Positions 13,382 to 50,489 of a stretch of DNA of 64,000 nt are shown here, piece by piece. Within the stretch, counting starts at the first letter, position 1; the number at the start of each line of letters is the position of its first letter. A program made the position numbers and the translations under genes. Location of the stretch: NCBI GenBank assembly GCA_000091205.1, contig AP006491.2; one strand, given 5' to 3'. The notes beneath the pieces are model-generated. The model had not been told where the DNA came from, searched no databases, and saw nothing but the letters and a program-made list of their open reading frames with translations. The stretch comes from Cyanidioschyzon merolae (taxonomy: Eukaryota).

Positions 13382-13495
13382 GATATCCTGCTATGCACCG
13401 CTGTGTATATGGGGGAGCGGAGTAGGCGAAGTGGAATTGAGTTGAAAGACTTAAAGCGCGCGTAACCTCCGCTCGTTCCGATAAATTGTTGAATC

Positions 13496-25845: not shown

Positions 25846-27321
25846 TATATATTCAGTAAAACAAAAAACGTTCTATGACCATTGAGGGTCAATACATATA
25901 CCCACATGCGGACGCCTCCCAGCCTTTTTTGACCCGCCGCCTGCAATCGGTTCCAGTTGATTCACGCACACTTCGAGCCTCAGCAGTTGCCACATAGCGT
26001 TGGATCGTGTCAGCTGCTCGGGTCTCGTCTTCAGCACAACGCATCGTCTGATATTGGTAGCAGCGTTCAAGTCTCGGCTTACGAGCTCCATGCGTTTACT
26101 GCCGATCCCTGATCTCATCACACCGAGGGTTCTTAGTACTCGTGCCCTCTGTTCCGCTACAGTCTCGTCATCGTTCCACTCGACAAACACCGTCCCTCGC
26201 CTATCTCCTTCTTCTCCTTCTTCGCCACTTGCTCTTCTTCGCTCGATGGTCGGCGAGAGGAGGCATTTTTCGTTCTGGCTGCGTCGAATCCAGCAATGAC
26301 GGAACTCAGGATCCCCGACTTCCACATCCATACCATTCCCTTGGATTCTCTGTTTCTTCAAAATCATAGCGATTGTTCATTCGTTTAGGTGAGGACCTTC
26401 CCGCAAAAGCTAGGACTCGCGAAAGTAAGACACCATGCGCCCGTGTGTCAACGTGTGCCGGAAGCTTCAGCGATGACCCCACTGGAGCGACATCATACGT
26501 TTCACAATGGAAAACATTCTTTTGATGAGGTTGAATCAAGTAGAGCACAGAGGAATGAAAAGCAGCACTATACCTCGACAGGATCGGCAAAAGCCCGAAC
26601 GCAAGGGGAATGGTGAAATGCCACGGTGTCCAGCAGAAGGACGTCGCCCGACGTCGGGGCGAAATCTTCCATGATTCGATCAAGTGGCTGCTGTTGGTCG
26701 ATGAGCCTTCTCCACTAGTGAATCTGAGGCCGCAAATAAAGTCCACTCCGTCTGGAGCAGATGATGACATCCTCGCTCTCTTCGAGCTCGATCGTACATC
26801 CAGCGGGTGCACTGTCCGCGAATACCCATTTACGCTCCGGCCGCCTCGTCCGAAGCAAGTTTCATCGACTGAACAAGCAAACCGACGTCCGTGTCCCGGT
26901 CCCTGTGCTCCATACGGATAGTGGCGTTCCACGAACGCTGAAGTAGCTGTGACCTCGGTGGGAAATGGCCGTGCACGAACTGAGACTTTCTTTTTGCGAC
27001 TGTACCCCGTGTATTCAGGACCACTCGAACACGCTTTTAAGGAACAGGGACGCGCGTAGCGACTACTATTTTCGCATTTGTCTTTCGTAAAAGGTGGTCA
27101 GCGGGCCGTTTTCTACCGTTGATCGCGCGCATTCTCTGAGAATATCGATGTTTGACGCAGAGTGCATCTACTTCTTTCGGTCAGTGTTCGTCAACCATCT
27201 GAGTACTGTTGTACGACCGACCTGGAGGAGGAACGCAGTCCTCCATGCACTGTTCAGGAAAGAATATGTATCGCACAGGCGATTCGCCTACGATCTATCG
27301 GGTACATGGCATCGTGATTTC
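25846..27321 (-). mobile_element. Fanzor/TnpB-like repeat element, copy B (3'-end variant 2)
   Basis: ORFs 26306..26932 and 25873..26367 (…SRDLNAATNIRRC…). Shares the variant-2 3' module (ccattgagggt.aata.atacccacatgcggacgcctcccagcc) with copies C and E. Confidence 0.6.
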
Positions 27322-27623
27322 TAGCTGCTATGATTGCCCGCAGCGGGCGTGCAAAACATTGATTTGAAAGACTAAAAAATCGAAATCGCCGGTCTGGTTT
27401 TTGCGCGCGCCCCCAGGAATAAATTCTATCGCGTTTGAAATTTATACATTTCCCACGTTCAGTACTCATCGCAATGGCTCTAGCGAAGCACGTGATACAC
27501 GCAGGGGCCAATAACTGGCTGGCATCATGAGTAAGACTGCTCCAATTTCTTTTTTTGGCAAATGAAGAATTCCGACGGACTGCCCTGTACGGAACGATAA
27601 TTGATTCGCTTTCCTACCACGGT

Positions 27624-28683
27624 GTCAGATTCATAAAGAGAACACTTAACTGCTTTCTCTGTGGCCGTCGTTCGATTTGCTTCTGAACTTTTGTTCAGAC
27701 GTACAGCTTCGGCATTCGAAGCGCATCAGTAATGTTCTACGAACTCATAGGTATGTTGGAGATTCCGGGTCCTCGTTTCTGAGCACTCCTTCGACTCTTT
27801 GGTGCTGAACGTCGTGGACATCACGGTCAGCGAGACGTCGACGACGACCCCGGACGCTGCTTCTGGGAGCAACCGGTATCAGCAGCCAGTTTCTAAACCT
27901 TGGTCGAATATTCCTCAAATACGAGGGCGCCGAGGCGAAGATAGGCCTGCCGCCTGCGAGCGAGCCCGGCGTGAGTCTCAGACGTCTTGGCCGCATCGTC
28001 GCTAATAAACAGTACATGCGGGCTCGACACCCACGAGTTGGCAAGGTGTCTCGATTCGCGTCAAGCTCATCGGCACTTTTTGTGCGAAGAATTGGCAGAA
28101 AAACGAAGAGCGGGCAAGGAGGCGGGGTCCGAGTACTCGAATCCGACAGCGCGCACACAAATGTGCAGCGAACAGAGTACTCGCTGAGGAAATCACCCGG
28201 GAGAGGCCTGTGATCATTGGGCATGGCGCAGCGCGCGGAAACGGAGGACGGCATCGGGCGGAGCCTTCTGGAACGGTAAAGCGCATGTACCGAGGGATGG
28301 TTCAAGCGTTTACGCGCCACACAGTGGCGCTCAGAGGCGGTGGAGGACTGGTGGATGCACATGGGAACACCTGACCAGGTCCAAGTGTAACGGGTGGGGA
28401 GTGCACCCCGAGGCCGTACAGAAAGAGGATGCAAATGGTAAACGAAGCTCAGATCGTGACTCGCGCCAGTGCATAAAACGGGTCTACAACAGCGAGAAGC
28501 CGCGAAACAGAGACTTCAACGCTACGATCAGTATCCTTCGGCTGGTGACCATGGGGCTGGAGAGACATGAGCAACCGGCGTATTCAAAGCCAGAGGCGAG
28601 AGGGGAAATGGAAGCGATAGCGGTAAAAGCCCGCCAAGGCCGTCGTTTGCGGTAACGGTGAGTGGCACGAACTTTCGAGTATA
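27624..28683 (-). repeat. Unclassified ~1.06-1.08 kb dispersed repeat ('Repeat-2'), copy 1
   Basis: >97% identical to 41733..42810 (inverted) and 49411..50489. All three copies lie on the 5'/LE side of a Fanzor-like element copy. Here a 300-bp unique linker (27322..27623) separates it from copy B. Its internal ORFs (229 aa, 134 aa, 84 aa) are compositionally biased and overlap on both strands, so they are probably not coding. Confidence 0.7.
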
Positions 28684-28839: not shown

Positions 28840-31080
28840 CTACAGAGGCTGCGCCATCTGTAACAAGAAATGACCTGCGTGATTGACCGCTGTACCGATA
28901 TCCAAACCGATGTAAGCATCGTCAAGAAACTGAGCGATCCACCGCGGAAGTTTTTGTAGAAGAGCCGGTCTTGCGTATCGCCTGTCGGCAAAAATCATAA
29001 TGCCATAGTCCTGCTTGTTGCGTATAACACGGCCTACGCACTGGGCCGCCTGCCTCATTGCGTCGAAAACAAGAAACTCATCTTCCCGTATCTGATAACG
29101 TTGCTGCAGATATGAGAGACGTGCCTTCAGCAGACGAGATTCACTGTATTGAAAAGGAACACCGAAAAGTAATGCGCACCGCCCATAGTGATTATCAAAA
29201 TCTATGCCCTCTGCTGCGCGGCCGCGAGCGACCGATAGCAGCACAGCGCCCCTGCCCGCGTCACAGGCCATGCGATAATGTTTAATCGCAAGACCAGCCT
29301 CGACAGCGTCCTGAGTTTCAACAAATGTGAGCTTCAGTTTCTGTAGACGCTGGAGGATATCGCTCTCTACCCATTGGGAGACAATGTCATGCATGAATTC
29401 ATAGCTGGGGAAAAAGCAAACAACGCCATCCGGGACAATATCGGCCATATTGAGGAGCAATTCTCCATAGTTCCGAGCAATCGATATTTCCTTCCTCGTG
29501 CTGTACTGCGAGCTGATGGGGGACTGATCGACCCCCCGCGTCACAATCAAGGGACACAGACACGCCCGCTCTAAGGACATTGGAAATGATTCTGCGATCG
29601 CTGCCCTGAAAGTCAGCAACCGCGGATAGAACCACAGAGGGCTCAACGTTCCAGATGTGATCACCACGCTTTTGAATCGAGTCAAGACCGGTCGCATGGC
29701 AAGTGATGCATCCAGGCACGCAAGGTGAAAAATTCTCTCCTCCGGGTCATTGATCACCACAAAGCCTGCAGAATAGGTTCCTAGGAGCGTGCAGAAATCA
29801 CTCAGCTTTTGCAAGGGAGAGAAGGCTGCAACATCAGATATTTCCAGTGCCCATAGCAATGAAACGAGTCTGTCTGAGGCGAGCTGGAGCGCTCTTCGCT
29901 CTGTGCTGAGTCTATGGCATACAGCAAGCGCCATGCGCTGCGCTGTCTCTTCCATGATAAGATTGGAATCGACCAGTTCCTGCACGTAACTCAAGATCTG
30001 GCGCAAAAACTGTAGGAATCCAACAGTCGATTGGATTTCTGGACACAGGGATATTCGCATTTGATCAGGTATCATAGCACTGGCATCCGGCGCTGACTCC
30101 ACAACCAGCGATGGCAGTGCGCTTGGATCGAGGCCAGCTATCTGCATATCCCGAAGCTGCGATTCTCGGTCCGCGGTGCTGATTCCCCATGCAAGACGCT
30201 CATATTCTTGGTGGAGTCGTTCCACACCGCGTCGTTTCATCTCATGGACTCTAGAAGAGAGTGTATTCAGATTCCGAGCCGCGCACTGGAGTAGCTGGTC
30301 ATTCAGCTGTACGCTGAAGGCCTCGGTACAAACATTGTCAATATTATGAGCTTCATCGAAAACTATGATCGTATCGGGACCGAAGTCGCTGCTCACAACA
30401 CGGCTTACTCGAGGATCCAGAATGTACTGATAACTATAAACCACAATATGAGCAAAGGGAACCATCTGACGCGCCAGAAAGTAGGGACACCATCCTACGC
30501 GAGCGCCAAACTCTCGCAAGTCCGAAATAGAATACGCTGCACCGGCTGGTAGAATAAAGTTTTGTGAAGCCGCCGAAGAAAATCGCTCGTAAAAAGGACA
30601 GAGACCTGGTGGAATATCGACCTGGTGTCCATGATCAGTCGACTGGTATGCCCTCTCTCGAACCCACGAAGCAGTAAGCGCACGGCAGGCACTTTCCACA
30701 CCGCGTGGATTGTGTAAAGCCTCCTCGAGCACACACAGGTGGCTCCGGGCAGCGAGGCCAACACATAGAAGCTCGGAGGGATCTCCGCGGTTCGCTTGCA
30801 TTGTTGCAAAGAGGCGCTTCGCCTCAGCCAGCACCTTTTCCATCTCTTCAACCGTTCGGGTGCAGTAAACAAGTTTCCTGTAAACTAGCGGCCAACGGCT
30901 GATGTATGAACTCGCTAGGCTCAGGATGCTAACGGTCTTACCGGTACCGGAGGGCATTTCGATAACGGCATGACCTCCAGCATCAAGGGCACGTTTCAAT
31001 GACCGCATGTACTGTAGCTGCTCGGGGTACGGTTCTCTGTAGGGAAAATTCACGGCAAGGTCCTCGATATCGACTATCAT
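28840..31080 (-). CDS. ERCC2: TFIIH/NER 5'-3' DNA helicase XPD (Rad3/ERCC2)
   Basis: N-terminus MIVDIEDLAVNFPYREPYPEQLQYM. Walker A …MPSGTGKTVSLL…. Fe-S domain cysteines. DEAH box …IIVFDEAHNIDN…. The XPD-specific …IVVYSYQYILDP…. C-terminal …SGTLSP… and …GRVIR… motifs. Confidence 0.9.
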   Translation of the reverse strand: MIVDIEDLAVNFPYREPYPEQLQYMRSLKRALDAGGHAVIEMPSGTGKTVSILSLASSYISRWPLVYRKLVYCTRTVEEMEKVLAEAKRLFATMQANRGDPSELLCVGLAARSHLCVLEEALHNPRGVESACRALTASWVRERAYQSTDHGHQVDIPPGLCPFYERFSSAASQNFILPAGAAYSISDLREFGARVGWCPYFLARQMVPFAHIVVYSYQYILDPRVSRVVSSDFGPDTIIVFDEAHNIDNVCTEAFSVQLNDQLLQCAARNLNTLSSRVHEMKRRGVERLHQEYERLAWGISTADRESQLRDMQIAGLDPSALPSLVVESAPDASAMIPDQMRISLCPEIQSTVGFLQFLRQILSYVQELVDSNLIMEETAQRMALAVCHRLSTERRALQLASDRLVSLLWALEISDVAAFSPLQKLSDFCTLLGTYSAGFVVINDPEERIFHLACLDASLAMRPVLTRFKSVVITSGTLSPLWFYPRLLTFRAAIAESFPMSLERACLCPLIVTRGVDQSPISSQYSTRKEISIARNYGELLLNMADIVPDGVVCFFPSYEFMHDIVSQWVESDILQRLQKLKLTFVETQDAVEAGLAIKHYRMACDAGRGAVLLSVARGRAAEGIDFDNHYGRCALLFGVPFQYSESRLLKARLSYLQQRYQIREDEFLVFDAMRQAAQCVGRVIRNKQDYGIMIFADRRYARPALLQKLPRWIAQFLDDAYIGLDIGTAVNHAGHFLLQMAQPL

Positions 31081-31549
31081 CGGTGAAACTTCTGCAGCGT
31101 ATGCGTTTCAGAAGCTTGTGCCGTCAAGGAGCAGCCGCAGCAGCGTGCTGGAAAGTAGTGCAAAATAGTGCAGCACCCTCGTTCAGTGCACTATAGGTGT
31201 CAAGCGAGCGAAACGCGAAGCCTTGAAACTGTGTCACTGTGTTTCTGAGCACCATTGAAACCGTGCCCTGTGGAAGCTTTTCAGCCTTGAGAGGCCTCGT
31301 TTTCGCCTTCGAAAGTTTGTATCTCCGCGAAAGGTTCGTTCCAGTCACCGAAACGCATAGACAAGCATATGATTATCGAGGAAAAAGTGGCCCGCTATCT
31401 CAAAAACTCACGAAGATGAGTTCAAGAGTGTAGGCAACTTGGACGCAGTCGACCGCCCAGTCAAAAGTTGACCGAACCGCAATCCAACCGCATAAGCGTG
31501 AAATTGCTCAGTAAAACAAAATATGGTGTACGACCATACAGTAACTGCG

Positions 31550-32000
31550 TATACCCACTCGCAGAAGCCAGACAGCAAAACTACCGGCCTCTTGTTATCG
31601 TTTCAGTTAATCCAGGCAAACTTCGAGCCTGAGACATCTCCACGAATTTGGATCGCGCCAGCTCCTCGGGTCTCGTCTGCAGAATCGCTTATCGTCCGAT
31701 ACTGATGGCGGCGTTGAAGTCTCGGTTCAAAAGCTTCTTGCACGTATTGACGCTGTTGAACTCACCAATGCAAAGATTCCTCGAACTCGTGCCCTCCGTG
31801 CCACCATAGTCTCGTCATCGTCCTGTCGGGCAAACACCATTTCTCGCATACCTCCCCATTGTTGTTCTCCTTCGTCATACGCTCTTCTTCGATCGATGAT
31901 ACACAATGAGGGGATTTTTCGTTTTGGTTTTGTCGAACCCGGCGATGACGGCTTTTCGAGATCCTCGACGTCCATGTCCGTACCCTTCCCTTGGATCTTT
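31550..32000 (-). mobile_element. Old, degenerate fragment of the same Fanzor/TnpB-like family (copy F, ~70% nucleotide identity)
   Basis: Nucleotide homology to the 3' ~450 bp of the element, e.g. …cactcgcagaagc…cttcgagcctgagac…ctcgggtctcgtctgcag…. ORF 31727..31975 (MDVEDLEKP…DDDETMVARRARV…) parallels MDVEVGDPE…NDDETVAEQRARV… in the young copies. A shifted frame reads …LLNRDFNAAISIGR*. Confidence 0.55.
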
Positions 32001-33544
32001 TATTTCTTCAAATGGACGCACTGCGGAAGCGTCTGATATAAATCGCGAAAAACCAGTAGACGACATGTAGTAGGGGTGGAACCCAAACGAGGTAAGAGAC
32101 TATAAAATGCGACACTGAACTGCTCGCTCTTTGGCTGCCTTGCGATTTTTCCGAGCTTTTCTTGAGATGCGGATCCAAAATTCCAATTGTAGCAATTAGG
32201 ACCGAGGATATCGTGGGTATAATGGGCTTCTTTGTCGTCTTTTCAAAGTGACACCTTCGACTCTTTGCTTCTAAAATCCGTTATGCCACCGTCAGCAAGA
32301 TGATTTACGATGCCTTCGAAAGCGAGTTCTTAAAATAACCGCGATCATTGTCCAATTCACACATACAAGCCTCCATTCTCTTCTCCTTTCTTTACGTCTA
32401 GTATGCGCACATCGCGCATTCTGCAAGGTTAAAATCTTTCCGTTTCGAGACTGCTCGTAGGATTTGCAATTTGCGCTGCTGGGTGGACGAGAAGAAAACT
32501 CGACGCAGTACCCTGAAGACTTTTTTGCAAGCTCCTGCCGTAAGTTCAAGGAACTGTTCACTTCAAACAATAGGTTCCGTTCGAATCGCCAATTTTCTTC
32601 TGTTTGCGGCCACCGACCATACGATTCTCGACAACAGCATGATGGCTTAAACGAGATAAGCTCCCAGAGGCCCCGTCGATTTTGCTTGCATGGAAAAGGG
32701 TCTTTGACACGAATTCCAGCCTTCGCAGCGATCGCTTTCGGTAGAAATTGCATCCGTGCTTTGCATGGAGTGTAAATGGATCGAGATTCCTCGAGTCGTT
32801 CTCCAATCTACATCCCCCTCCGATGTGTGATTCAAGGCGAACAACATTGCGTTCAACAAATCTATCATCGGATAGAGAGGCATGTCCATGCGCGAGCAGC
32901 AGGCCAAGAACTCGCCGGCTGTATAATCCCGAAGCAGCCCATGAGCGCAGAGTACGCCACGGGGCGCGCAAACGGAGGAAAGCATTGGTAAGATCCTTCT
33001 ATATCCGTCAAGGGCATTTCCTGACCGATAATGCAAATGCTCCCGCGCCGCAGGGCAGCCCGTGGTGCAGATGTGATGGGAAAATGGAAAAACCTGGTTA
33101 CAGCCGAGTGTCACCTCTGCGAAAGGCACACCGGAGCTGTACAAAAAGCAAATGAAAAAGGCGAACGAAGCGTGGATCGCAAATTGGAACTGTGAAAGGA
33201 TTGCGTTGATAGCAGCGGGAAGAGGCGAAATTGGGTCTATAACGCTGGTATGATCCCCTTTAGCTTACGGCCATGGAGCTGGTAGGACGTGAATGATCAG
33301 CGTAACTGAGGCCGGAGATTAGACAGATGAGAAGAAATCAGCTGTAGAAAACGCACTCTAAGGCTGGTGTTGGTGAACGTGGGAAGAAATCCAAAATTTG
33401 AGAGTAAACGTCCGTGTTATTTGAGTGGACCTGTTCAATTTTACTCTATGCTGGGTGTGTCTCTGATCTAAACAAGGGAGTGGCGCTTCCCCTGTTCCAA
33501 AGTCGAATAGTTGAACAATTGCTAACGGCTCGCTTGCTCTCACT

Positions 33545-34738: not shown

Positions 34739-37700
34739 AACGTTCCGCTCTCTGGGTCTGTGGAAAGCACCAGCGTGCAGGTGACCGTGCTCCAGTGATC
34801 AGACGCCACTGGGGATCAAAATGTTTCACCAGTCATGAACCAAGTTGGCGCATGCGACTTTCTCAGATGACAGAACGTTTAGATTGACCATAGCTCCCAG
34901 AATTCGGAATGGATAATAGCTTTCGGGAGAGGGTCCATGATGAAGCGCCTATCTTAGAGTTCCATTACCCATACTTGCTCTCGGATATACTGGTCGTTTC
35001 GTATGCTCGATCGTGCGACAAGTGCCTGCCGTGAACACCCGCCGTGGCGCTTATACCACTGAAGCAGATGCTGCACGGAGACAGAACGGCTTTGCCATAC
35101 CACTGAGGGCGCCCGCTCGAAGAATGATTCATTCAACATAGGGTCGGAATACATAATAATAATCCTGGGAGCCTGTAAGCTGCGCAGACAGATGCGCTGC
35201 CTGCGACAGCGCGAAGCGATACACTAAGAGTCCACTGCGACCAGGGTGACGCCCAGACGCAGCATCCTGCTCCTAGTCCCAAAGTGAATTCCGTTGCGGA
35301 CGAGCTGCGCAGGTCTCGCCACAGCACCTGCCACTGGTGGAAGCGTGAAGCACTAGGCCTGCAGACTCGTCCGGCTCGCGGGACCTTCTGCCTAGAGGGT
35401 AAACTTTCGAAGATACTGAAACTTTTCCCCATTTCGACGCTTATTATCAATGTCGAAAGAAACTGTTATCGAGTTGCTAGTCAGTGGTTAGTTTCTGTTA
35501 TTTCTTCCCTAGGAGAGTACTTGCTGCTCACGGGACGGGCACAACTGGAGGGCCCACCAGTCCGAGGACTGGCCTTTGCTGCCGCTATCTCTATTCAAAG
35601 CCCTGCCGAGTGCTCTCTCATTTTCTCTCTCTACAACCTCCTGTCCGCGCCCTTGGCCAAACCTGTGAAAAGATATCGCTCGCGTCACTCGTGTTCATAT
35701 GTAGGGTACATTGGCGCATGCGATACCCAATGAAATCGGCGTCGTCATCTAACGGATTGGTTGCTAGACTTTGCGCGGCTGTTGGAGAAGTTATTGTATG
35801 GCCTGGCACCAAAGCATATCAGAGTTTGCGCGAACTTCCCGGTTTGGCTTGACAGGGGTGCCAGCTGTGGAAAATCCATCTGATGAACCATACGCCTTCC
35901 GATACTTCGTGCTACAGTTCAGAATTCGGTGTTCAGTTCGCGATGACGAGTGGCTAGGCGTTTGGGGCTCGCTTCCTCTGCTGCACGATTGTTTCAACGC
36001 ACCACTTCCGATGAAAAAACTACGTCGCTCAAGGGGCCAGATCGAGTGGGCTTTGCGTGTGCGTTTTCCAAAGCATCTTTATGACGGTTGCGAGTTTACG
36101 TATATATACTGCCTGTTACGGAAAGTTTCTGCGGATAGCCAGTATGAATCTTCCTACGAAGTCGTTGGCTGCGAGCCCTGTCCGTTACGCAAAAGTATTC
36201 TGAGCAGCGAAATCTTGCCATACGGTTTCTACGAACATGACGATCGCTGGGGTCATAATGACGGGAAGGTATATCCAAGGCAGGATCGCCTGGGTGTACT
36301 TGTATACAAGCATCTTTCGCGAGACGCCGCTCCATGCCGCATATCATAGGCAAGAGACAAAGTGACAGCTTGAACGCGCACGTCACACTTGTCTGCAGCA
36401 CTTTGACGTTTATGAGAAAGCGCTCAAGGTGTAGTCGAAAATTCCATCTCACGTGGCCCAAATGCACAGCGACACAGCACTTCATAGAGCGCGCTCCACC
36501 GGCAAACACGAACGGCGGCAGGCATCAATCGTGACCCTGTGCCCGAGCGGAATTTCCTCTGTTCTTACGACTTACAGTTGTTCCGCTCGGTGCAAATATT
36601 TCCTACTCAGCTTTAGTTGATAATGAGGCCGAGATCCCCAATATCTGGAATATTGGAATGAGAAGCATGAAGTCGTTTCGTGGTGGCGTCGATTAGCAGC
36701 AGTCTACCTAGAGAAATCGCCTATCCGCTCTTTTGCCCCCGGCTTCTTGTTGTATTTGGAGCTGTAATTTCTGGAATCATTGTACCAGAGCACCTTTTTG
36801 GTTTTGGTCTGTTTTCGTCGCAGTTATGGAACGAAAGCAATGTGTTCTGTAGATTCGAGAGAGGTCCCGGAAGTATGCTATACTGTCACTGTTAACTTGA
36901 GAAAGAATGGCCTTGGCCCTAGAGCTCACTTCTTCCACGGTAAGCAGGTTGATCAACCAAACATGTAGCAGTCCTTATTCTTAACGTCTCGCAATCTAGA
37001 CAGAATTTATGAATCTCCATTCACGCGAACGTCTTTTGATCAATTCATTCTGCACCATAAGCTCCGTGGGAAATTCTATCCAAGAATCCACGCGATTTTA
37101 AGCTTCCTTACCCCTGATACGAACGATAATGAAGAAACACGGATGGACAAGGAAAAAACACATTCTCGTGCGAGACCGTCGCATCTTGAACAACAGACTA
37201 CCGATTCCATACAGAAACGCGAAAGCTCATTACAGGAGTGAAGGGCGATCGCCTCACTCGATGCAGACTCATTAGGAAGAAATGGTAGACCTCTAGATGG
37301 ATAATTAAAGAGGGAGTAAACCATTTTTCATGAAGAAGAGACAAGCGAGAATGAGGACAATATTAGTCGTATCGGCAATTCGATCCTGTGGTCGCCTATA
37401 TGTCACTTAGATGACAGGGCCTGTCAACACCTTATCCATCATCGAAAGCGTCTGAAAGCTTTTCTTTTCAGTATTTCTCTTTAAAACTTGTCGAGAAAAC
37501 AGTTGCCATGACTCCAACGCGTTTAGAACATACGCAGCTGAGATTGGCGTGAAGCCGCTCCACGTGCCCACCTACTTTCACTGGTTCAGCCGAGTCGGGG
37601 GCGCACTCTCTGTGGTCAGACGCCATGATCACGCTCATGGATTCATGAAAGTGTCTTTTGTGTCCATTACACCGTTTTGTGACGAGCCTATTTTCTACAA

Positions 37701-39528
37701 GATGCTCTCTACCTTCACCAGGGTTGAGTTGCAGTGTTGGTCTTCTGCTTGGGCACGGGAGGGAGCCAAAAGGCGAGCCGGACTCGTTGGCGTGCTCGAG
37801 ACGGATAAGGTGACGGAAAATGTTCGTAGAAGTAGTAAATGTACACATAGAAAACGCAAGTCTCAGAGCCATCGTAAACCCAGTGCATCTGAATACCGAG
37901 GAAAAACTGATATGGAGTATAGCGATCACATCTATACCACTTTTCGAAGAAGGGGAGAAATAGAAGAGAACACCAGACAAAGAAGAAAGCTCCATCCTGT
38001 GGGAGGACGAGGAGAGACAGGAAATCATAACACGTCGAAGCGGAAACATCAGTCTGAAACTTTTGACAAAGCCTCCCAGCTAAAACTCATGAGCGGCGAG
38101 AACCTTTGGTAATGTGGGATGCAGAACTCCATTGGGGAACGCGCTGACTGTCACTCCATGTGGGGGCGCTTAGCTTCCCTCGCCCTGGTGCATCTCGCCA
38201 AACGACTGATCGCAACAGTTTCATTCGCAGGGATCCAAGCTGTCAACATTCCTCTGTAACTTCTCGATCAAGCATGCATCTGAAACCTGATGCTCGGGAT
38301 AGACGATGCAATACGACCTGACTTTTTCCATGGCTCTGTATTATCTGGAGTCGGGCGTGATGGACGCCAGGCGGCATGCCAGCGGGTGGAATAGCGGCGT
38401 CAGACCCGATGATAGCGCTCTGAGCACCTGAACGAGTTGAGCGGGATGCGTTGTGCGCGCCACTCACAGAGCGTACAAGAGCGTGTATCTGGCTCACGTG
38501 GGCTATCCCTGGCAGGTTTCCATGAGACCGCATTGAGATCGCCAACCAGCTCGGTGCGATGAAACCACGAGCGCGCACCAGCTCACTTCTTCAATGGAGA
38601 GCAGAGGGAGATGATCGACAATTCGCGTCGTTTGGCGGTAGCCTGTGGCGCTCGACGCGCAGTGCTGCGCACAGGCTGTACTCCCGTGCCTTCGACGGCG
38701 GCGTGCAACGAGTGCACGAGTCGATTCTGCACTATTGCTGTCAATGCGAACAGGGCGATGGACGCGCATCACAGGCAGGGGTGCACGCTGGAGCTGGTAG
38801 AGAGGAACAGCGTAGAAGCGTGTCGGATGCACGGGCTGGTCAACGGCAAACTGACCGGGCGTCAGTTGACGAGGCCATCGAAGATAGGAGACTTGCTATG
38901 CCGCGGCTCGATCCGCAACAAGTGCACATGCACTTGCTGCACCCAGACCTGAGCGCCTCGATCAACTTACGGAAATGCCGGGAGCGTTCGGAGCGTCCCG
39001 CGGCATTGTGTCGAGCGAACTCTTGAGGGAATCCTTTAGTGCTCAGTGGAGGTATTGTGCTGGGAAGCTGATGCGTTGCGATGAATACGAATCGGTGGTC
39101 AGGTGGGCGGACATTGGATATCCGCCCTGGGCGAGTCGCTGGTGTAGCACGGGTCAGCGAACCGGAAAGGCTGGAGCATTACACAGATGTATATAATGGG
39201 AACCTTTTCTCCTGGGTGATTGGTGGACCACAATGAAGCTGGATAATCCCATATTACCGCGTATCCGTATTCCGACGCTCCCATGACTTTACGTGCATCG
39301 CATATGAACTCTACAGCCACGTCGCGCTGCACTGTCGCAGGGCCTGGGCCCGTACGCGTTCCGCCATCCCAGCTATGATCGCATAACCGATGCGGGCCGC
39401 TCATCGTTTCGCGTTCTGGGCACGCGGTCACCGCGATTCGCGGTAACATTACAGACCAGCTTTTTAACATTTTTTGTCTCGGTGACTTCGCGAACGGTGC
39501 TCACGACGCGAGTTACTTTACATAGGAC

Positions 39529-41732: not shown

Positions 41733-42810
41733 TATGTTCCCGAACTCACGACTATACTCGAAAGTTCGTGCCACTCACCGTTACCGCAAACGACGGCCTT
41801 GGCGGGCTTTTACCGCTATCGCTTCCATTTCCCCTCTCGCCTCTGGCTTTGAATACGCCGGTTGCTCATGTCTCTCCAGCCCCATGGTCACCAGCCGAAG
41901 GATACTGATCGTAGCGTTGAAGTCTCTGTTTCGCGGCTTCTCGCTGTTGTAGACCCGTTTTATGCACTGGCGCGAGTCACGATCTGAGCTTCGTTTACCA
42001 TTTGCATCCTCTTTCTGCACGGCCTCGGGGTGCACTCCCCAGCCGTTACACTTGGACCTGGTCAGGTGTTCCCATGTGCATCCACCAGTCCTCCACCGCC
42101 TCTGAGCGCCACTGTGTGGCGCGTAAACGCTTGACCCATCCCTCGGTACATGCGCTTTACCGTTCCGGAAGGCTCCGCCCGATGCCGTCCTCCGTTTCCG
42201 CGCGCTGCGCCATGCCCAATGATCACAGGCCTCTCCCGGGTGATTTCCTCAGCGAGTACTCTGTTCGCTGCACATTTGTGTGCGCGCTGTCGGATTCGAG
42301 TACTCGGACCCCGCCTCCTTGCCCGCTCTTCGTTTTTCTGCCAATTCTTCGCACAAAAAGTGCCGATGAGCTTGACGCGAATCGAGACACCTTGCCAACT
42401 CGTGGGTGTCGAGCCCGCATGTACTGTTTATTAGCGACGATGCGGCCAAGACGTCTGAGACTCACGCCGGGCTCGCTCGCAGGCGGCAGGCCTATCTTCG
42501 CCTCGGCGCCCTCGTATTTGAGGAATATTCGACCAAGGTTTAGAAACTGGCTGCTGATACCGGTTGCTCCCAGAAGCAGCGTCCGGGGTCGTCGTCGACG
42601 TCTCGCTGACCGTGATGTCCACGACATTCAGCACCAAAGAGTCGAAGGAGTGCTCAGAAACGAGGACCCGGAATCTCCAACATACCTATGAGTTCGTAGA
42701 ACATTACTGATGCGCTTCGAATGCCGAAGCTGTACGTCTGAACAAAAGTTCAGAAGCAAATCGAACGACGGCCACAGAGAAAGCAGTTTAGTGTTCTCTT
42801 TATAAATCTG
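41733..42810 (+). repeat. Repeat-2, copy 2 (inverted relative to copies 1 and 3), continuous with Fanzor-like copy C
   Basis: Near-identical to 49411..50489 and 27624..28683. Joined to copy C through the same ~110-bp linker sequence seen in copy D. Confidence 0.7.
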
Positions 42811-44370
42811 ACATGGACTAATGGTCTATAAACTCAACTGTATTCCTGCCGCACTGTGTATGATCGAATGCTGTTTGCGGTCTAGGGCGGGGGCCAGAAA
42901 TCACGATGCCATGTACCCGATAGATCGTAGGCGAATCGCCTGTGCGATACATATTCTTTCCTGAACAGTGCATGGAGGACTGCGTTCCTCCTCCAGGTCG
43001 GTCGTACAACAGTACTCAGATGGTTGACGAACACTGACCGAAAGAAGTAGATGCACTCTGCGTCAAACATCGATATTCTCAGAGAATGCGCGCGATCAAC
43101 GGTAGAAAACGGCCCGCTGACCACCTTTTACGAAAGACAAATGCGAAAATAGTAGTCGCTACGCGCGTCCCTGTTCCTTAAAAGCGTGTTCGAGTGGTCC
43201 TGAATACACGGGGTACAGTCGCAAAAAGAAAGTCTCAGTTCGTGCACGGCCATTTCCCACCGAGGTCACAGCTACTTCAGCGTTCGTGGAACGCCACTAT
43301 CCGTATGGAGCACAGGGACCGGGACACGGACGTCGGTTTGCTTGTTCAGTCGATGAAACTTGCTTCGGACGAGGCGGCCGGAGCGTAAATGGGTATTCGC
43401 GGACAGTGCACCCGCTGGATGTACGATCGAGCTCGAAGAGAGCGAGGATGTCATCATCTGCTCCAGACGGAGTGGACTTTATTTGCGGCCTCAGATTCAC
43501 TAGTGGAGAAGGCTCATCGACCAACACCAGCCACTTGATCGAATCATGGAAGATTTCGCCCCGACGTCGGGCGACGTCCTTCTGCTGGACACCGTGGCAT
43601 TTCACCATCCCCCTTGCGTTCGGGCTTTTGCCGATCCTGTCGAGGTATAGTGCTGCTTTTCATTCCTCTGTGCTCTACTTGATTCAACCTCATCAAAAGA
43701 ATGTTTTCCATTGTGAAACGTATGATGTCGCTCCAGTGGGGTCATCGCTGAAGCTTCCGGCACACGTTGACACACGGGCGCATGGTGTCTTACTTTCGCG
43801 AGTCCTAGCTTTTGCGGGAAGGTCCTCACCTAAACGAATGAACAATCGCTATGATTTTGAAGAAACAGAGAATCCAAGGGAATGGTATGGATGTGGAAGT
43901 CGGGGATCCTGAGTTCCGTCATTGCTGGATTCGACGCAGCCAGAACGAAAAATGCCTCTTCTCGCCGACCATCGAGCGAAGAAGAGCAAGTGGCGAAGAA
44001 GGAGAAGAACGGAGATAGGCGAGGGACGGTGTTTGTCGAGTGGAACGATGACGAGACTGTAGCGGAACAGAGGGCACGAGTACTAAGAACCGTCGGTGTG
44101 ATGAGATCAGGGATCGGCAGTAAACGCATGGAGCTCGTAAGCCGAGACTTGAACGCTGCTACCAATATCAGACGATGCGTTGTGCTGGAGACGAGACCCG
44201 AGCAGCTGACACGATCCAACGCTATGCGGCAACTGCTGAGGCTCGAAGTGTACGTGAATCAACTGGAACCGATTGCAGGCGGCGGGTCAAAAAAGGCTGG
44301 GAGGCGTCCGCATGTGGGTATATATTTACCCTCAATGGCCGGGAAGCATGTCTCGTTTTACTGAATATAG
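42811..44370 (+). mobile_element. Fanzor/TnpB-like repeat element, copy C (plus orientation, variant-2 3' end); with Repeat-2 it forms a 2.6 kb composite at 41733..44370
   Basis: ORFs 43286..43912 and 43882..44364 (…SRDLNAATNIRRC…). The 3' end is …ccattgagggtaaatatatacccacatgcggacgcctcccagcc. Confidence 0.6.
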
Positions 44371-44604: not shown

Positions 44605-47016
44605 ATGCGTCCAGGCCAGGCGAGCGTGCTCATCTCCGTACGTGCGCAGGCGTGTGTGTCTGGATGTGCGTACATACTTTTTGCTGGAACGCCGGTTATT
44701 AAAGGCCGCATGTCTGCTGCAGGTTTCCCTAGAGTTTCGACGGCACTTTCCGCCGCGCTGAGGTCTAGGGGAGCACAACGCTGTGGAAGAGTATGGTGGG
44801 CGAGGGCGCCATCGCAGAGCTTGCGGGTTCTGCTTCGGAACTACACACCAAGTCTGGGTTCTTTCGGGCTACGGCGGCAGCTTTATCGTCTGGAGCGAGA
44901 AGCAGACTTGTACCCTGAAGATTGGAGAAAGCAGATGATACTCTTAGAACAGCTAAACCGAGAAGGATCTGTTCAAAGTGCCGAGAAAGTTATTCAACGC
45001 ATCGAATCCGGGAGGTATGCTCTCGGAGAAGAGGCAAAGTACGAGTACATCAAAGCCCTTGTACGAGTTGGAAAACTGGAGGAGCGGTCGAAAACTGGCG
45101 GTGGCCTCGAGTCCGTGTTGCGAAATATTCCAGGCTCTGGAAGTGTCCTTTCTCGAACTGGGAATAGTTCGGAAAGTGGTCGCCTTCCCAGAGGCGCTGC
45201 CGAGCCTCCGACTGCCGCGCGCTACACAGACAACTTTAACAGTCCTCTCCAAATGTATGCCGGTGAAGGCACGCACCCAACGAGCGCCGGTGCGACAGCT
45301 CCCTCCTCAGCGCGAGCGTTGATGGGAGGTGCCTCCGGCGGAGCGTCCGGCAGCACCGAGGAACCGCTTGTCGTCACCCTTGCTGAGCCTACCTTCAGGA
45401 CGCAACTGTGGAAAACGATCCGCACGCTTGGCACTGTATTTCTGCTAATGTCAGGAGTTGGTGCAGTTATGGAGGAGCGGGGCCTATCCCGAGGAATCAG
45501 TATGCAGCAAGAGGTGCTACCCGAAGAAGGCAACAAAAATCTGCGACGGTTCTCTGATGTGAAAGGCTGTGACGAGGCGAAGGATGAACTCATAGAGATA
45601 GTCGAGTATTTGAAGGCGCCACAGAAGTTTACGCGCCTCGGCGGAAAACTCCCCAAGGGCGTGCTTCTAGTCGGGCCACCTGGAACAGGCAAGACACTGT
45701 TGGCGAGAGCGATTGCGGGCGAGGCTGGCGTTCCGTTTTTCTACGCATCCGGCTCTGAATTTGAAGAAATGTTCGTAGGCGTCGGCGCTCGCCGCGTGCG
45801 GGAACTCTTTAACGCAGCTAAGAAGCGGGCTCCCTGTATCGTGTTCATTGACGAAATAGACGCAATAGGCGGCAAGCGGAACCCCAAAGATCAAATGTAT
45901 ATGAAAATGACCCTGAATCAGCTGCTTGTTGAGCTCGACGGATTTTCGTCCTCTGAGGGTATTATCGTGATCGGAGCTACGAACTTCCCGGAATCGCTCG
46001 ACAAGGCGTTGATTCGTCCGGGCAGATTCGATCGCCATGTTATCGTTCCGAACCCTGACGTTCGTGGACGAGAAGAGATCCTCACCCTTCACACCGAGAA
46101 GATTCCGCTTGCGGACGATGTGAATCTCGAAATACTTGCTCGGAGCACGCCTGGATTTTCTGGCGCAGATCTAGCGAATCTGGTGAACATGGCAGCTTTG
46201 AAGGCGGCCCGTGAAGGCGCTTCCCTCGTTACTATGGAGAACTTTGAGTTCGCCAAAGACAAGATAATCATGGGTGCCGAGAGACGCAGCGCAGTTATAT
46301 CAGAGGAAAACCGTCGTTTAACTGCTTACCACGAAAGCGGGCACGCGCTAGTCGCGCTCTTCACGGATGGCGCGCTGCCGGTGCATAAGGCAACCATTGT
46401 GCCGCGTGGCGTCGCTCTCGGCATGGTCGCGCAGCTCCCGGAAAAGGATATGACGTCTATGTCACGCAAACAGATGCTTGCTAAACTCGACGTGTGCATG
46501 GGCGGCAGAGCTGCTGAGGAACTGATTTTCGGACCTGAAAATGTCACGAATGGGGCGGAGTCTGATATAGAGCAGGCAACAGAGCTGGCAGAGGCAATGG
46601 TGACCCGCTTTGGTATGAGTCCCAAGCTGGGTAACATGGCTTACGACATTCAGAGGGAGGTATGTGGGGAGCTTCTGCACGTGGTGGAGAAGGAGGTCAA
46701 ACGATTTTTGGACGAAAGCTACCAGCGGGCAAAGCAAGTGCTGCTGACTCATGAAAAGGAACTCCATCGAGTGGCAGCGGCCCTACTGGAGAAAGAAACC
46801 TTGGGCCGGGAGGAGATCATTCGTATCGTGAGGGGCGATCCTCTCCGCGAGCAGTTGTCGGAGGAAACGACCGTGAAATCCGAAGAGGAGGCCGCCGACA
46901 CTGGCAGCCTGGCTGAAAACGTTGCAGCAAGAGCACGAGGCGCTGTCGCCGCAGCAGCGGCAAAAGCTGGCGTGCCTCGGCCTGGAAAAGTCCCGGCAAC
47001 AGCGAAAACGGCCTGA
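44605..47016 (+). CDS. FTSH: ATP-dependent zinc metalloprotease FtsH (organellar AAA protease) with N-terminal targeting/extension region
   Basis: Walker [24 protein letters not shown]. Walker [17 protein letters not shown] …[21 protein letters not shown]…. Zinc-binding HEXXH …[11 protein letters not shown]…. C-terminal helical domain. Confidence 0.9.
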
Positions 47017-47871: not shown

Positions 47872-49410
47872 AAAAAGATTCGCAATTGTGTGCGGTAAAA
47901 GAATATCCACTCGCAGAAGCTTATTATCCTTTTTTGACCCGCCGCCTGCAATCGGTTCCAGTTGATTCACGCACACTTCGAGCCTCAGCAGTTGCCACAT
48001 AGCGTTGGATCGTGTCAGCTGCTCGGGTCTCGTCTTCAGCACAACGCATCGTCTGATATTGGTAGCAGCGTTCAAGTCTCGGCTTACGAGCTCCATGCGT
48101 TTACTGCCGATCCCTGATCTCATCACACCGAGGGTTCTTAGTACTCGTGCCCTCTGTTCCGCTACAGTCTCGTCATCGTTCCACTCGACAAACACCGTCC
48201 CTCGCCTATCTCCTTCTTCTCCTTCTTCGCCACTTGCTCTTCTTCGCTCGATGGTCGGCGAGAGGAGGCATTTCTCGTTCTGGCTGCGTCGAATCCAGCA
48301 ATGACGGAACTCAGGATCCCCGACTTCCACATCCATACCATTCCCTTGGATTCTCTGTTTCTTCAAAATCATAGCGATTGTTCATTCGTTTAGGTGAGGA
48401 CCTTCCCGCAAAAGCTAGGACTCGCGAAAGTAAGACACCATGCGCCCGTGTGTCAACGTGTGCCGGAAGCTTCAGCGATGACCCCACTGGAGCGACATCA
48501 TACGTTTCACAATGGAAAACATTCTTTTGATGAGGTTGAATCAAGTAGAGCACAGAGGAATGAAAAGCAGCACTATACCTCGACAGGATCGGCAAAAGCC
48601 CGAACGCAAGGGGAATGGTGAAATGCCACGGTGTCCAGCAGAAGGACGTCGCCCGACGTCGGGGCGAAATCTTCCATGATTCGATCAAGTGGCTGCTGTT
48701 GGTCGATGAGCCTTCTCCACTAGTGAATCTGAGGCCGCAAATAAAGTCCACTCCGTCTGGAGCAGATGATGACATCCTCGCTCTCTTCGAGCTCGATCGT
48801 ACATCCAGCGGGTGCACTGTCCGCGAATACCCATTTACGCTCCGGCCGCCTCGTCCGAAGCAAGTTTCATCGACTGAACAAGCAAACCGACGTCCGTGTC
48901 CCGGTCCCTGTGCTCCATACGGATAGTGGCGTTCCACGAACGCTGAAGTAGCTGTGACCTCGGTGGGAAATGGCCGTGCACGAACTGAGACTTTCTTTTT
49001 GCGACTGTACCCCGTGTATTCAGGACCACTCGAACACGCTTTTAAGGAACAGGGACGCGCGTAGCGACTACTATTTTCGCATTTGTCTTTCGTAAAAGGT
49101 GTCAACGGGCCGTTTTCTACCGTTGATCGCGCGCATTCTCTGAGAATATCGATGTTTGACGCAGAGTGCATCTACTTCTTTCGGCCAGTGTTCGTCAACC
49201 ATCTGAGTACTGTTGTACGACCGACCTGGAGGAGGAACGCAGTCCTCCATGCACTGTTCAGGAAAGAATATGTATCGCACAGGCGATTCGCCTACGATCT
49301 ATCGGGTACATGGCATCGTGATTTCTGGCCCCCGCCCTAGACCGCAAACAGCATTCGATCATACACAGTGCGGCAGGAATACAGTTGAGTTTATAGACCA
49401 TTAGTCCATG
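47872..49410 (-). mobile_element. Fanzor/TnpB-like repeat element, copy D (variant-1 3' end); with Repeat-2 it forms a 2.6 kb composite at 47872..50489
   Basis: ORFs 48311..49171 and 47788..48372 (…SRDLNAATNIRRC…). The 3' module aaaaagattcgcaattgtgtgcggtaaaagaatatccactcgcagaagcttattatcc is shared only with copy A. Confidence 0.6.
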
Positions 49411-50489
49411 TCAGATTTATAAAGAGAACACTAAACTGCTTTCTCTGTGGCCGTCGTTCGATTTGCTTCTGAACTTTTGTTCAGACGTACAGCTTCGGCA
49501 TTCGAAGCGCATCAGTAATGTTCTACGAACTCATAGGTATGTTGGAGATTCCGGGTCCTCGTTTCTGAGCACTCCTTCGACTCTTTGGTGCTGAATGTCG
49601 TGGACATCACGGTCAGCGAGACGTCGACGACGACCCCGGACGCTGCTTCTGGGAGCAACCGGTATCAGCAGCCAGTTTCTAAACCTTGGTCGAATATTCC
49701 TCAAATACGAGGGCGCCGAGGCGAAGATAGGCCTGCCGCCTGCGAGCGAGCCCGGCGTGAGTCTCAGACGTCTTGGCCGCATCGTCGCTAATAAACAGTA
49801 CATGCGGGCTCGACACCCACGAGTTGGCAAGGTGTCTCGATTCGCGTCAAGCTCATCGGCACTTTTTGTGCGAAGAATTGGCAGAAAAACGAAGAGCGGG
49901 CAAGGAGGCGGGGTCCGAGTACTCGAATCCGACAGCGCGCACACAAATGTGCAGCGAACAGAGTACTCGCTGAGGAAATCACCCGGGAGAGGCCTGTGAT
50001 CATTGGGCATGGCGCAGCGCGCGGAAACGGAGGACGGCATCGGGCGGAGCCTTCCGGAACGGTAAAGCGCATGTACCGAGGGATGGGTCAAGCGTTTACG
50101 CGCCACACAGTGGCGCTCAGAGGCGGTGGAGGACTGGTGGATGCACATGGGAACACCTGACCAGGTCCAAGTGTAACGGCTGGGGAGTGCACCCCGAGGC
50201 CGTGCAGAAAGAGGATGCAAATGGTAAACGAAGCTCAGATCGTGACTCGCGCCAGTGCATAAAACGGGTCTACAACAGCGAGAAGCCGCGAAACAGAGAC
50301 TTCAACGCTACGATCAGTATCCTTCGGCTGGTGACCATGGGGCTGGAGAGACATGAGCAACCGGCGTATTCAAAGCCAGAGGCGAGAGGGGAAATGGAAG
50401 CGATAGCGGTAAAAGCCCGCCAAGGCCGTCGTTTGCGGTAACGGTGAGTGGCACGAACTTTCGAGTATAGTCGTGAGTTCGGGAACATA
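49411..50489 (-). repeat. Repeat-2, copy 3, directly abutting Fanzor-like copy D
   Basis: Near-identical to the other two Repeat-2 copies. Its far end (…gttcgggaacata) is shared with copy 2. Confidence 0.7.

Follow-up and report, generated by a model that had tools for sequence, protein, structure and literature searches.

The 64,000-nucleotide (nt) stretch of Cyanidioschyzon merolae contig AP006491.2 studied here (GenBank assembly GCA_000091205.1; hereafter the window) contains at 31505-32104, on the minus strand, a heavily mutated sequence, the old copy, that is homologous to five nearly identical repeats in the window, the young copies. The old copy belongs to CMe-1, a published family of Fanzor1 elements, and is very probably a dead copy of a non-autonomous deletion derivative of CMe-1 Fanzor1 that has decayed neutrally. 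The block D-x-N-A-A-x-x-I that can still be read in it is, judged by sequence comparison, the RuvC-III motif of a TnpB/Fanzor-type nuclease. Purifying selection on this block is real and acted in functional or master lineages, and the copies drifted after insertion. What was found is an ordinary transposon fossil, correctly recognised as a homologue, of a family already published for the C. merolae genome.

CMe-1A is a Fanzor1 family of C. merolae with ~150 copies, each ~80% identical to a 3,169-bp consensus; it has no terminal inverted repeats and no target-site duplications, and it encodes a Fanzor1 protein of 734 amino acids (aa) (Bao & Jurka 2013, Mobile DNA 4:12, PMC3627910). The CMe-1A consensus DNA and the CMe-1 protein were taken from the supplement of that paper and compared with the window by blastn and tblastn.

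Homology and layout of the old copy

Self-comparison of the window with megablast identified five copies of a ~1.4-1.5-kb repeat (R1, the young copies) that are 98.6-99.7% identical. When positions 31001-32600 were searched against the window with blastn, 31508-32012 aligned with 25853-26362 in one of these copies at 70.9% identity over 516 columns (E 2e-59), and the four remaining copies matched at 71.5-71.9% (E 1e-51 to 1e-54). An earlier reading of the DNA made from sequence only had put the identity of 31550-32000 to the 3' part of the young element at roughly 70%, a value that these alignments reproduce. The homology is wider than that interval: it runs from about 31505 to 32104 and pairs with the 3' ~430-510 nt of the five repeats, and its last ~90 nt correspond to the 5' untranslated region (UTR) of the published consensus. 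CMe-1A nt 2833-2971 match 31803-31669 (72.7%, E 5e-15), nt 786-969 match 32104-31915 (67%, E 1e-9), and CMe-1 aa 640-698 match the old copy with E 6e-9 (tblastn). The old copy thus belongs to the CMe-1 family: it lies in the genome for which the consensus was published and is homologous to that consensus at the DNA level in its 5' as well as its 3' part. Its parts are as follows.

31505-32104, minus strand: old copy, very probably a decayed, internally deleted, non-autonomous element of the Fanzor1/CMe-1 family (blastn, tblastn, consensus matches)
31973-32104, minus strand: start codon (31975-31973) and remnant of the canonical CMe-1A-type 5' UTR (blastn to CMe-1A nt 786-969)
31803-31915, minus strand: internal-deletion junction zone joining Fanzor codons ~45 and ~631 (CMe-1A nt 969 falls at 31915, nt 2833 at 31803)
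31698-31724, minus strand: remnant of the putative RuvC-III motif, R-D-F-N-A-A-I-S-I, homologous in position to the young RDLNAATNI and to CMe-1 aa 671-679

In the orientation of the element, the 5' UTR remnant is followed by N-terminal codons, the deletion junction, ~100 C-terminal codons and a 3' tail ending in ...GTTTTACTGA. The N-terminal MDVEDLEKPSSPGSTKPKRKIPS resembles MEKEVEDPGGPVSPAAGKKRKTVPS of CMe-1, and the junction zone is in part a low-complexity, GAA-rich stretch.

The sequence-only reading hung its claim of homology on the positional correspondence of RDFNAAISI and RDLNAATNI. The 27 nt concerned fall in the same columns in three independent MAFFT alignments, with old CGAGACTTCAACGCCGCCATCAGTATC and young CGAGACTTGAACGCTGCTACCAATATC in identical columns. 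A chance likeness between unrelated sequences, for which nothing speaks except the shortness of the motif, is ruled out: the motif lies inside a colinear alignment of ~500 nt, and the same region matches the CMe-1A consensus, the CMe-1 protein and seven further lineages from metagenomes. The claimed homology of the old copy is therefore genuine.

The conserved block as a RuvC-III motif

Searching a database with CMe-1 gave 43 relatives, every one from a hot-spring metagenome; among them are intact full-length proteins down to 31% identity. Ten full-length relatives were aligned (alignment A1), and the alignment was used as a profile. In these relatives, at 31-43% identity, [NS]RD.N[AG]A.NI is almost invariant, and the D and N of the RD.N block are nearly so. 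Searched against the PDB, the A1 profile had a sole match, 8GKH, the Fanzor1 of Spizellomyces punctatus (SpuFz1), with E 4e-6 over profile positions 283-653. The D of GADPGN, the E of VDEFRTS and the D of NRD in the family align to 8GKH chain residues 777, 935 and 1000. An offset of 394 residues for the maltose-binding protein (MBP) was deduced from the chain length of 1032 compared with the 638-aa protein, and is corroborated by N779 being N385; with it, the three residues are SpuFz1 D383, E541 and D606, which are the catalytic residues of that enzyme (Saito et al. 2023, Nature 620:660, PMC10432273). Under this alignment and the assumed offset, the full-length CMe-1 family carries the D...E...D catalytic triad, for which the order D-x(125-275)-[TS][TS]xx-[zinc finger]-x(5-50)-RD has been described in Fanzor1 and TnpB (Bao & Jurka 2013, PMC3627910). 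The zinc finger of the CMe-1 clade is degenerate (H-H-C-C in CMe-1). The sequence-only reading had called the block a catalytic motif; through the family profile, the D of D-x-N-A-A aligns to SpuFz1 D606 and is the third RuvC aspartate.

Searches with single sequences were negative. No repeat open reading frame (ORF) matched Pfam, and neither did the proteins P0004 (752 aa) and P0043-P0046; phmmer against the PDB found no match for the 194-aa and 286-aa ORFs or for CMe-1 itself. CMe-1 compared with Pfam PF07282 (OrfB_Zn_ribbon / Cas12f1-like TNB) stayed below threshold (E 0.52, 11 bits, cut-off 26.3), the aligned residues 669-679 being the motif.

Reading frames and inactivating mutations

The 82-aa ORF MDVEDLEKP...DDDETMVARRARVRGIFALVSSTASIRARSF (ending in ARSF) is present at 31727-31975 on the minus strand, and a neighbouring frame of the old copy reads ...KLLNRDFNAAISIGR* (also given as ...NTCKKLLNRDFNAAISIGR*), with D..I of the block at 31721-31698. 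The parallel that the sequence-only reading had drawn between old and young ORFs holds in part. The ORF is real and DDDETMVARRARVRGI lies in the ancestral frame, as follows from the CMe-1 C-terminus ...LTEEQMERRAKVRGLLALVSTTSDGKKRMEFVNRDFNAAINIRRCAVLEKRPPELTRENFVGQPLKVELY...; IIDRRRAYDEGEQQ and TIERRRASGEEGEEG, however, are off the ancestral frame in old and young copies alike and are parallel because the DNA is similar, the ancestral reading being ...SSRRPSSEEEQVTKKKKK.... The CMe-1 C-terminus ...EEQMERRAKVRGLLALVSTTSDGKKRMEFVNRDFNAAINIRRCAVLEKRPPELTR... resembles the translations of both the old and the young copies.

Measured against the consensus ORF, the old copy carries at least four frameshifts and two in-frame stops in addition to an internal deletion, in agreement with its earlier description as heavily mutated, frameshifted and truncated. 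The young copies are out of frame over codons ~8-41 of the consensus ORF; they still hold an open frame of 137-194 aa, from which gene callers predicted the proteins P0001 and P0002. A first protein search with the young ORF returned three matches.

Two candidate interpretations were rejected. A Cys-rich frame upstream of the motif (GVCPTGR*RDYGG / GACPTGQCRDCSG) had been considered ancestral, implying a zinc finger; the CMe-1 protein shows that DDDETMVARRARVRG is the true frame. A simple 5' truncation, considered after tblastn had placed the young CWIRRSQNEKCLLSP on CMe-1 aa 615-630 (CTLQRVEMEKCQRSP), was ruled out by DNA homology to the 5' UTR, the start and the first codons (match to CMe-1A nt 865-969, 79%, E 6e-21).

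A shared internal deletion defines a mini subfamily

A metagenome scan seeded on the C-terminal alignment, with a peptide pattern that lies on the motif, yielded 79 loci, many of them with full-length CMe-1A-like ORFs. Nine lineages, comprising the old copy, the young copies, L004 and six more from the metagenomes, share the same deletion junction; in the MAFFT alignment they are colinear across it, with only small indels in the GAA-rich stretch. In L013 and L014, aa 1-55 are followed within 10 nt by aa 647-729. The majority consensus of this mini subfamily (539 nt) matches CMe-1A nt 865-969 (79%) and nt 2840-3084 (77%), with nothing between, and restores an intact ORF of 155 aa, MDMEVEDPGGPASPGSTKETEKSSSRRPSSEEEQVTKKKKKGDRREKVFARRDDDETVVAQRARVLGILALVSSTSGSKRMEFVNRDFNAAINIRRCVVLKTRPEELTRSNFVGQPLRLEVC.... 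The subfamily lacks codons ~45-630 (~1.75 kb) and with them RuvC-I (GADPGN), RuvC-II (VDEFRTS) and the zinc-finger region; therefore no copy of it, old or young, can encode an active nuclease. With only ~45 N-terminal and ~100 C-terminal codons kept, neither the old nor the young copies are functional Fanzor1 genes.

The young element is consequently no intact reference for the old one: it has the same ~1.75-kb deletion and a frameshifted N-terminal part, and its motif SRDLNAATNI is farther from the family consensus NRDFNAAINI than the old NRDFNAAISI. In the window, the R1 copies match CMe-1A nt 2882-3088 at 71-79% (blastn) and CMe-1 aa 615/640-729 at 39-51%, with E values down to 6e-20 (tblastn).

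R1 has an alternative 5' module of ~950 nt, which also occurs in L011-L014 at 68-69% identity. In L056, the module (~900 nt, 905-1698) stands upstream of a full-length Fanzor ORF that starts at ~1880; it thus appears that 5' modules can be exchanged within the family, as has been published for TE-N2_CMe and CMe-1A. The same module also precedes full-length or longer Fanzor1 ORFs in L063, L073, L074, L078 and L083.

These features can be arranged into a probable history. The full-length element, of ~3.2 kb, encodes the 734-aa Fanzor1, a predicted eukaryotic, TnpB-like, RNA-guided RuvC nuclease. A derivative lost ~1.75 kb of the ORF: before the gap it still has the 5' UTR with the first ~45 codons, and after the gap the last ~100 codons, which hold only the putative third RuvC motif (NRDFNAAINI), and the 3' tail. 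The subfamily would have been amplified long ago from a master in which the 155-aa mini ORF was still open; the old copy, the progenitor of the five young copies and the other copies have since decayed neutrally by ~18-20% each.

Selection, decay and age

The ratio of non-synonymous to synonymous substitutions (dN/dS) was calculated according to Nei-Gojobori on the CMe-1 frame, aa 639-727. It is 1.04 between young and old copies, with 25, 24 and 26 differences at the three codon positions, 0.80 between the young copies and L004, and 0.85 between the old copy and L004. Each mini lineage compared with the CMe-1A consensus gives 0.37-0.52, and the mini consensus compared with the CMe-1A consensus gives 0.27, with 11, 11 and 22 differences. 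The copies thus evolved neutrally after insertion, and selection acted in the master and full-length lineages. The earlier proposal of purifying selection on the block stands for functional ancestors, where the block is near-invariant at 31-43% identity and dN/dS is 0.27-0.52. It finds no signal in the old-young pair, for which a comparison of substitutions in the motif and its flanks had been suggested: the motif is no better kept than the flanks (5/27 compared with 151/475 differences, Fisher p=0.20). A sliding window over the same pair shows no peak at the motif (0.70-0.73), and the start-codon region is higher (0.80-0.83).

The block is still readable because it was near-invariant in functional ancestors and because 20% neutral decay is too little to erase nine codons. 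When neutral change was simulated to 20% divergence, the residues D, N, A, A and I were all retained in 8% of trials, which is unremarkable for a post-hoc observation. Erosion of the motif elsewhere is as expected for fossils: other family remnants in the window read NRDFNATISI (in the repeat R2), HPDLSASINL and RRPLNALIDI, and the catalytic D is lost in the metagenome copies L004 (TRGFNAAINI) and L011 (NKAFNAAINI).

Pairwise identity among the mini lineages is 64-72%, their phylogeny is star-like, and each is 18-25% from a leave-one-out consensus. Identity to the mini consensus is 80.6% for the old copy (over 31505-32028) and 82% for the young ones, so that the lineages have the same age and the old copy does not predate the progenitor of the young copies.

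Retention of the 3' end

Fanzor and TnpB systems produce their guide RNA (omegaRNA) by transcription that runs from the 3' end of the gene across the right end of the element (PMC10432273). A hairpin stands at the 3' terminus of CMe-1A copies, in one of two forms, CGTTCGA-CTT-TCGAACG or CGTYTTTC-TTTT-GAAAGRCG. It occupies the last ~25 nt of L026, L033, L059 and other CMe-1A-type loci (alignment A3, columns 309-329) and is followed by GGCGTT. Compensatory variants occur, for example TTCTA/TAGAA in L028 and CGTCTTT/AAAGACG in L039; 80.8% of cells are paired compared with 35-44% when the hairpin is slid, and the covariation, reached by 23/500 shuffles, is weak to moderate. RNAalifold on 25 full-length CMe-1A 3' regions gave a weak consensus (-12.9 kcal/mol, covariation term ~0) with no supported helix over the motif. 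An Rfam scan and a tRNA scan found no match, and the termini do not match Helitron1 consensus ends. We infer that the 5' and 3' parts were kept for the cis signals that mobilisation in trans would need, possibly with a guide-RNA gene; a cis or RNA role of the 3' part is a plausible, though not a likely, contributor to its survival.

CMe-1A also has a second small hairpin across the stop codon (AGACG-TTT-CGTCT). The palindrome of the mini subfamily is a different one, GGGTATATATATACCC, ~45 nt from the end, and variant palindromes are present in L064 and L023.

Alternative explanations for the persistence of the block

Several observations weigh against the reading of the old copy as a neutrally decayed derivative of a Fanzor1 element. 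Its assignment to Fanzor rests on the profile search and the published classification, as Pfam and the single-sequence PDB searches gave no significant match, and the term non-autonomous transposon is our reading of the structure of the copies. The retention of all five residues would be somewhat lucky under neutrality (P ~0.08), and the young lineage keeps them too. Mean consensus identity across the mini lineages is 0.86-0.91 in and just after the motif compared with 0.75-0.86 elsewhere, a comparison biased by the fact that seven of the nine lineages were found with a peptide pattern on the motif; these loci were not used to measure motif conservation. Constraint at the DNA or RNA level on the motif stretch is possible. 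In its full form, this explanation holds that the block and the retained 3' ~270-430 nt persist by such constraint, the minis being guide-RNA-only or right-end-signal elements served in trans by Fanzor1 and a transposase. The 3' part is indeed kept in all deletion derivatives, with the slightly better conservation in and after the motif and the 3'-terminal hairpin with some compensatory changes pointing the same way. For SpuFz1, overlap of the omegaRNA with Fz 3' ends and ORF-less 'ghost' elements are known (PMC10432273), and Fanzor1 families of Chlamydomonas show 3'-biased retention with internal deletions (PMC3627910). However, the RNAalifold consensus is weak and has no supported helix over the motif, Rfam gave no match, the old-young comparison peaks at the start codon rather than the motif, and the conservation excess is confounded by the motif-based ascertainment, so that we consider constraint of this kind unlikely. 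The same doubt applies to the idea that the minis are long-lived 'guide-only' Fanzor1 satellites. These would have retained the 5' end, a 3' hairpin and a 3' segment of ~270 nt, the presumed omegaRNA gene, which starts at the RuvC-III codons and reaches the right end. Such satellites would depend on Fanzor1 and on a transposase, perhaps of the HUH type, from full-length CMe-1 elements. If true, they would explain five recent copies of a lineage whose ORF was already 18% decayed.

It is far less probable still, to the point of being close to negligible, that the mini ORF (~45 N-terminal and ~110 C-terminal aa) is a functional small protein, such as a regulator or a dominant-negative form, with the motif under ongoing selection. 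The intact 155-aa ORF in the nine-lineage consensus, the dN/dS of 0.27 between the two consensus sequences, and the 137-194-aa open frames behind P0001 and P0002 in the young copies would fit such a protein. Yet dN/dS among extant lineages is 0.8-1.04, the young ORF is off the ancestral frame over codons ~8-41, every other mini lineage carries private frameshifts or stops of its own, as the old copy does, and the catalytic D is replaced in L004 (G) and L011 (KA). The low ratio between the consensus sequences can predate the deletion, and no similarity to Pfam or PDB entries was found. Decay of a dead deletion derivative accounts for these observations and remains the reading that we prefer.

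Recent multiplication of one lineage

The five young copies in the window are the following.

11928-13395, minus strand: R1 copy A, with the ~950-nt 5' region and the A/D-type 3' tail (megablast, 98.9-99.2% to the other copies); motif RDLNAATNI at 12134-12111
25846-27332, minus strand: R1 copy B (self-comparison, MAFFT)
42831-44369, plus strand: R1 copy C, inverted relative to D, with a 1-nt insertion; P0001 (160 aa) is this variant
47872-49391, minus strand: R1 copy D (self-comparison)
55271-56810, minus strand: R1 copy E (self-comparison)

One decayed lineage has certainly been copied recently, five times; the copies diverge by 0.3-1.4%. The sequence-only reading had concluded that the family was active both anciently and recently. 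Recent copying of one lineage stands, but 'old' and 'young' describe copy number and not the age of a lineage. The young copies are mosaic, with a central 1.4 kb common to all, three 5' variants and two 3'-tail haplotypes (A/D, 11928-11983 and 47872-47927; B/C/E, 25846-25922, 44297-44369 and 55271-55345) that are about half identical to each other. The switch between haplotypes lies at the same position in all five (11984, 25923, 44296, 47928 and 55346), which suggests a recombinant master rather than independent conversions.

We infer that a single decayed copy was re-mobilised recently and gave the five near-identical copies. A possible though less probable origin is local segmental duplication or, between older copies of the 64-kb region, gene conversion. 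All five copies lie inside 64 kb, a 2.56-kb inverted duplication (R2 and R1, 99.5%) around FtsH includes C and D, and the mosaic tails and 5' variants would be in keeping with such exchange. The ends of the young copies showed neither target-site duplications nor terminal inverted repeats. No empty insertion site was found, all five copies being at the same sites in every overlapping metagenome contig fetched, and exact-protein look-ups of two neighbouring ORFs, made in search of empty sites, gave no match. The amplified lineage is, moreover, as distant from the consensus as the old copy. On the other side, A, B and E have unrelated flanking sequence beyond the element, the identical haplotype breakpoints fit one recombinant master copied repeatedly better than independent conversions, and target-site duplications are normally absent in the CMe-1 family (PMC3627910).

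Comparison with known systems

CMe-1/CMe-1A itself (PMC3627910) is the closest system. It resides in the same genome, the old copy matches its nt 786-969 and nt 2833-2971, NRDFNAAINI followed by RRC.VL..RP.ELTR is common to both, its copies are likewise old (~80% to the consensus) and devoid of terminal inverted repeats and target-site duplications, and a TE-N2_CMe-like piece lies in the window. The copies described here differ in forming a deletion-derivative subfamily, with a ~0.55-kb core or 1.4-1.5 kb including the alternative 5' region; the mini consensus is only 77-79% identical in the shared parts, and the last ~80 nt after the stop codon are different. This subfamily is not described in the text of PMC3627910, the Repbase entries lying outside what was covered. 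It is of a known kind, comparable to the 'ghost' Spu-1 elements of Spizellomyces punctatus, which are non-autonomous relatives of a Fanzor1 transposon that keep its ends, have lost the Fanzor ORF and are more numerous than full-length copies (PMC10432273). The ghosts, however, are defined by 30-nt inverted repeats of the Mariner/Tc1 type, which the C. merolae family does not have, and the C. merolae minis retain ~145 ORF codons including the putative RuvC-III motif.

CRe-1, CRe-2 and CRe-3 of Chlamydomonas reinhardtii (non-autonomous, Helitron2-type; PMC3627910) also show frequent internal deletions, variable or truncated 5' ends, nearly always intact 3' ends with a terminal hairpin, and Fanzor1 as the sole protein. 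In Chlamydomonas, both Helitron2 termini, with asymmetric terminal inverted repeats and a 5' hairpin, and a RepHel partner have been documented (PMC3627910), whereas no HUH/Helitron transposase is reported for C. merolae in the literature covered. Bacterial TnpB-only elements of the IS200/IS605 type (IS1341 group) share the RuvC nuclease with its C-terminal motif ...RD.NAA.NI, the absence of terminal inverted repeats and target-site duplications, subterminal hairpins and the need for a transposase in trans. CMe-1 differs from them as a eukaryotic Fanzor1 clade with a long N-terminal extension, a degenerate zinc finger (H-H-C-C) and no significant direct Pfam match. OMEGA systems encode their guide RNA at the 3' end.

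The significance of the finding beyond annotation is small: remnants of one published Fanzor1 family crowd this part of a C. merolae chromosome, and the ORFs read from the repeats are fossils, not genes. The Fanzor1 elements of C. merolae gave rise to a derivative that keeps only the ends and the last ~100 codons, a parallel to the Spizellomyces ghosts. C. merolae is a genetically tractable, nearly intron-less alga. As one decayed copy multiplied recently, it is a possible place to study Fanzor1 mobilisation and 3'-end guide RNAs.

Other family remnants and neighbouring genes

Further repeats and genes of the window are listed below.

49409-50489, plus strand, 27623-28683, plus strand, and 41733-42813, minus strand: repeat R2, ~1.06 kb (megablast, 99.3% among copies)
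32112-33433, plus strand: diverged R2 copy, head-to-head with the old copy as at three young loci (partial matches to R2)
38318-39038, plus strand: decayed Fanzor1 remnant, aa 462-702 including RuvC-II and the zinc-finger region (tblastn, three linked high-scoring segment pairs, E 1e-27)
6186-7278, minus strand: decayed Fanzor1 remnant, aa ~56-214 and 549-694 (tblastn; CMe-1 E 7e-11, P0044 E 2e-13, P0043 E 1e-4)
34866-35507, plus strand: TE-N2_CMe-like element equivalent to the 5' 640 nt of CMe-1A (blastn, CMe-1A nt 2-640, 82.8%)
28840-31080: XPD helicase, protein exactly that of XP_005536319.1 of C. merolae 10D

R2 adjoins R1 head-to-head in copies B, C and D. It carries a far more decayed Fanzor C-terminal remnant, NRDFNATISI (50292-50321), in the orientation opposite to R1; it matches CMe-1 aa 614-685 with E 0.12-0.16 (tblastn), and it has a 30-nt, 87% match to the motif of the old copy. 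The diverged R2 copy matches in three parts: 32112-32275 with 27642-27809 (67%), 32964-33179 with 28233-28456 (64%), and 33356-33433 with L004 871-795 (72%). The old locus is thereby colinear with the 3' part of R1 and then R2. In L004 and L015-L017, R2-like sequence lies tail-to-tail directly after the Fanzor 3' ends.

In the remnant at 38318-39038 the motif has eroded to HPDLSASINL (38928-39038), and in that at 6186-7278 to RRPLNALIDI (6216-6299). Both remnants belong to other lineages. With these pieces, the 64-kb stretch has at least 11 pieces of the CMe-1 family. The TE-N2_CMe-like copy at 34866-35507 is attached to no Fanzor ORF; the relation of TE-N2_CMe to CMe-1A has been described (PMC3627910). 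The 5' part of R1 (49176-49319, plus strand, and equivalents) has a weak antisense likeness to CMe-1 aa 116-157 (tblastn E 0.05-0.25; FFRSVFVNHL...RRNAVLHAL compared with FFDKTFIRHL...RRNERVHAL), which may be chance or the trace of another inverted Fanzor fragment.

The old copy ends ~425 nt upstream of the XPD start codon (31080), on the same strand, and lies in or next to the XPD promoter region (31080-31505). At copy B, ~300 nt (27323-27622) separate R1 from R2, whereas the metagenome contig L001, otherwise 99.5-99.7% identical, has 83 nt and a junction like those of C, D and E; the difference is either a strain polymorphism or an assembly difference. C and D with their R2 copies (41733-44369 and 47872-50489) form the inverted repeats around the gene for FtsH / ATP-dependent zinc protease (44605-47016), and this pair could permit inversion of the gene by homologous recombination. 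The FtsH ORF in the window is 803 aa long, longer than the 768-aa RefSeq model XP_005536323.1.

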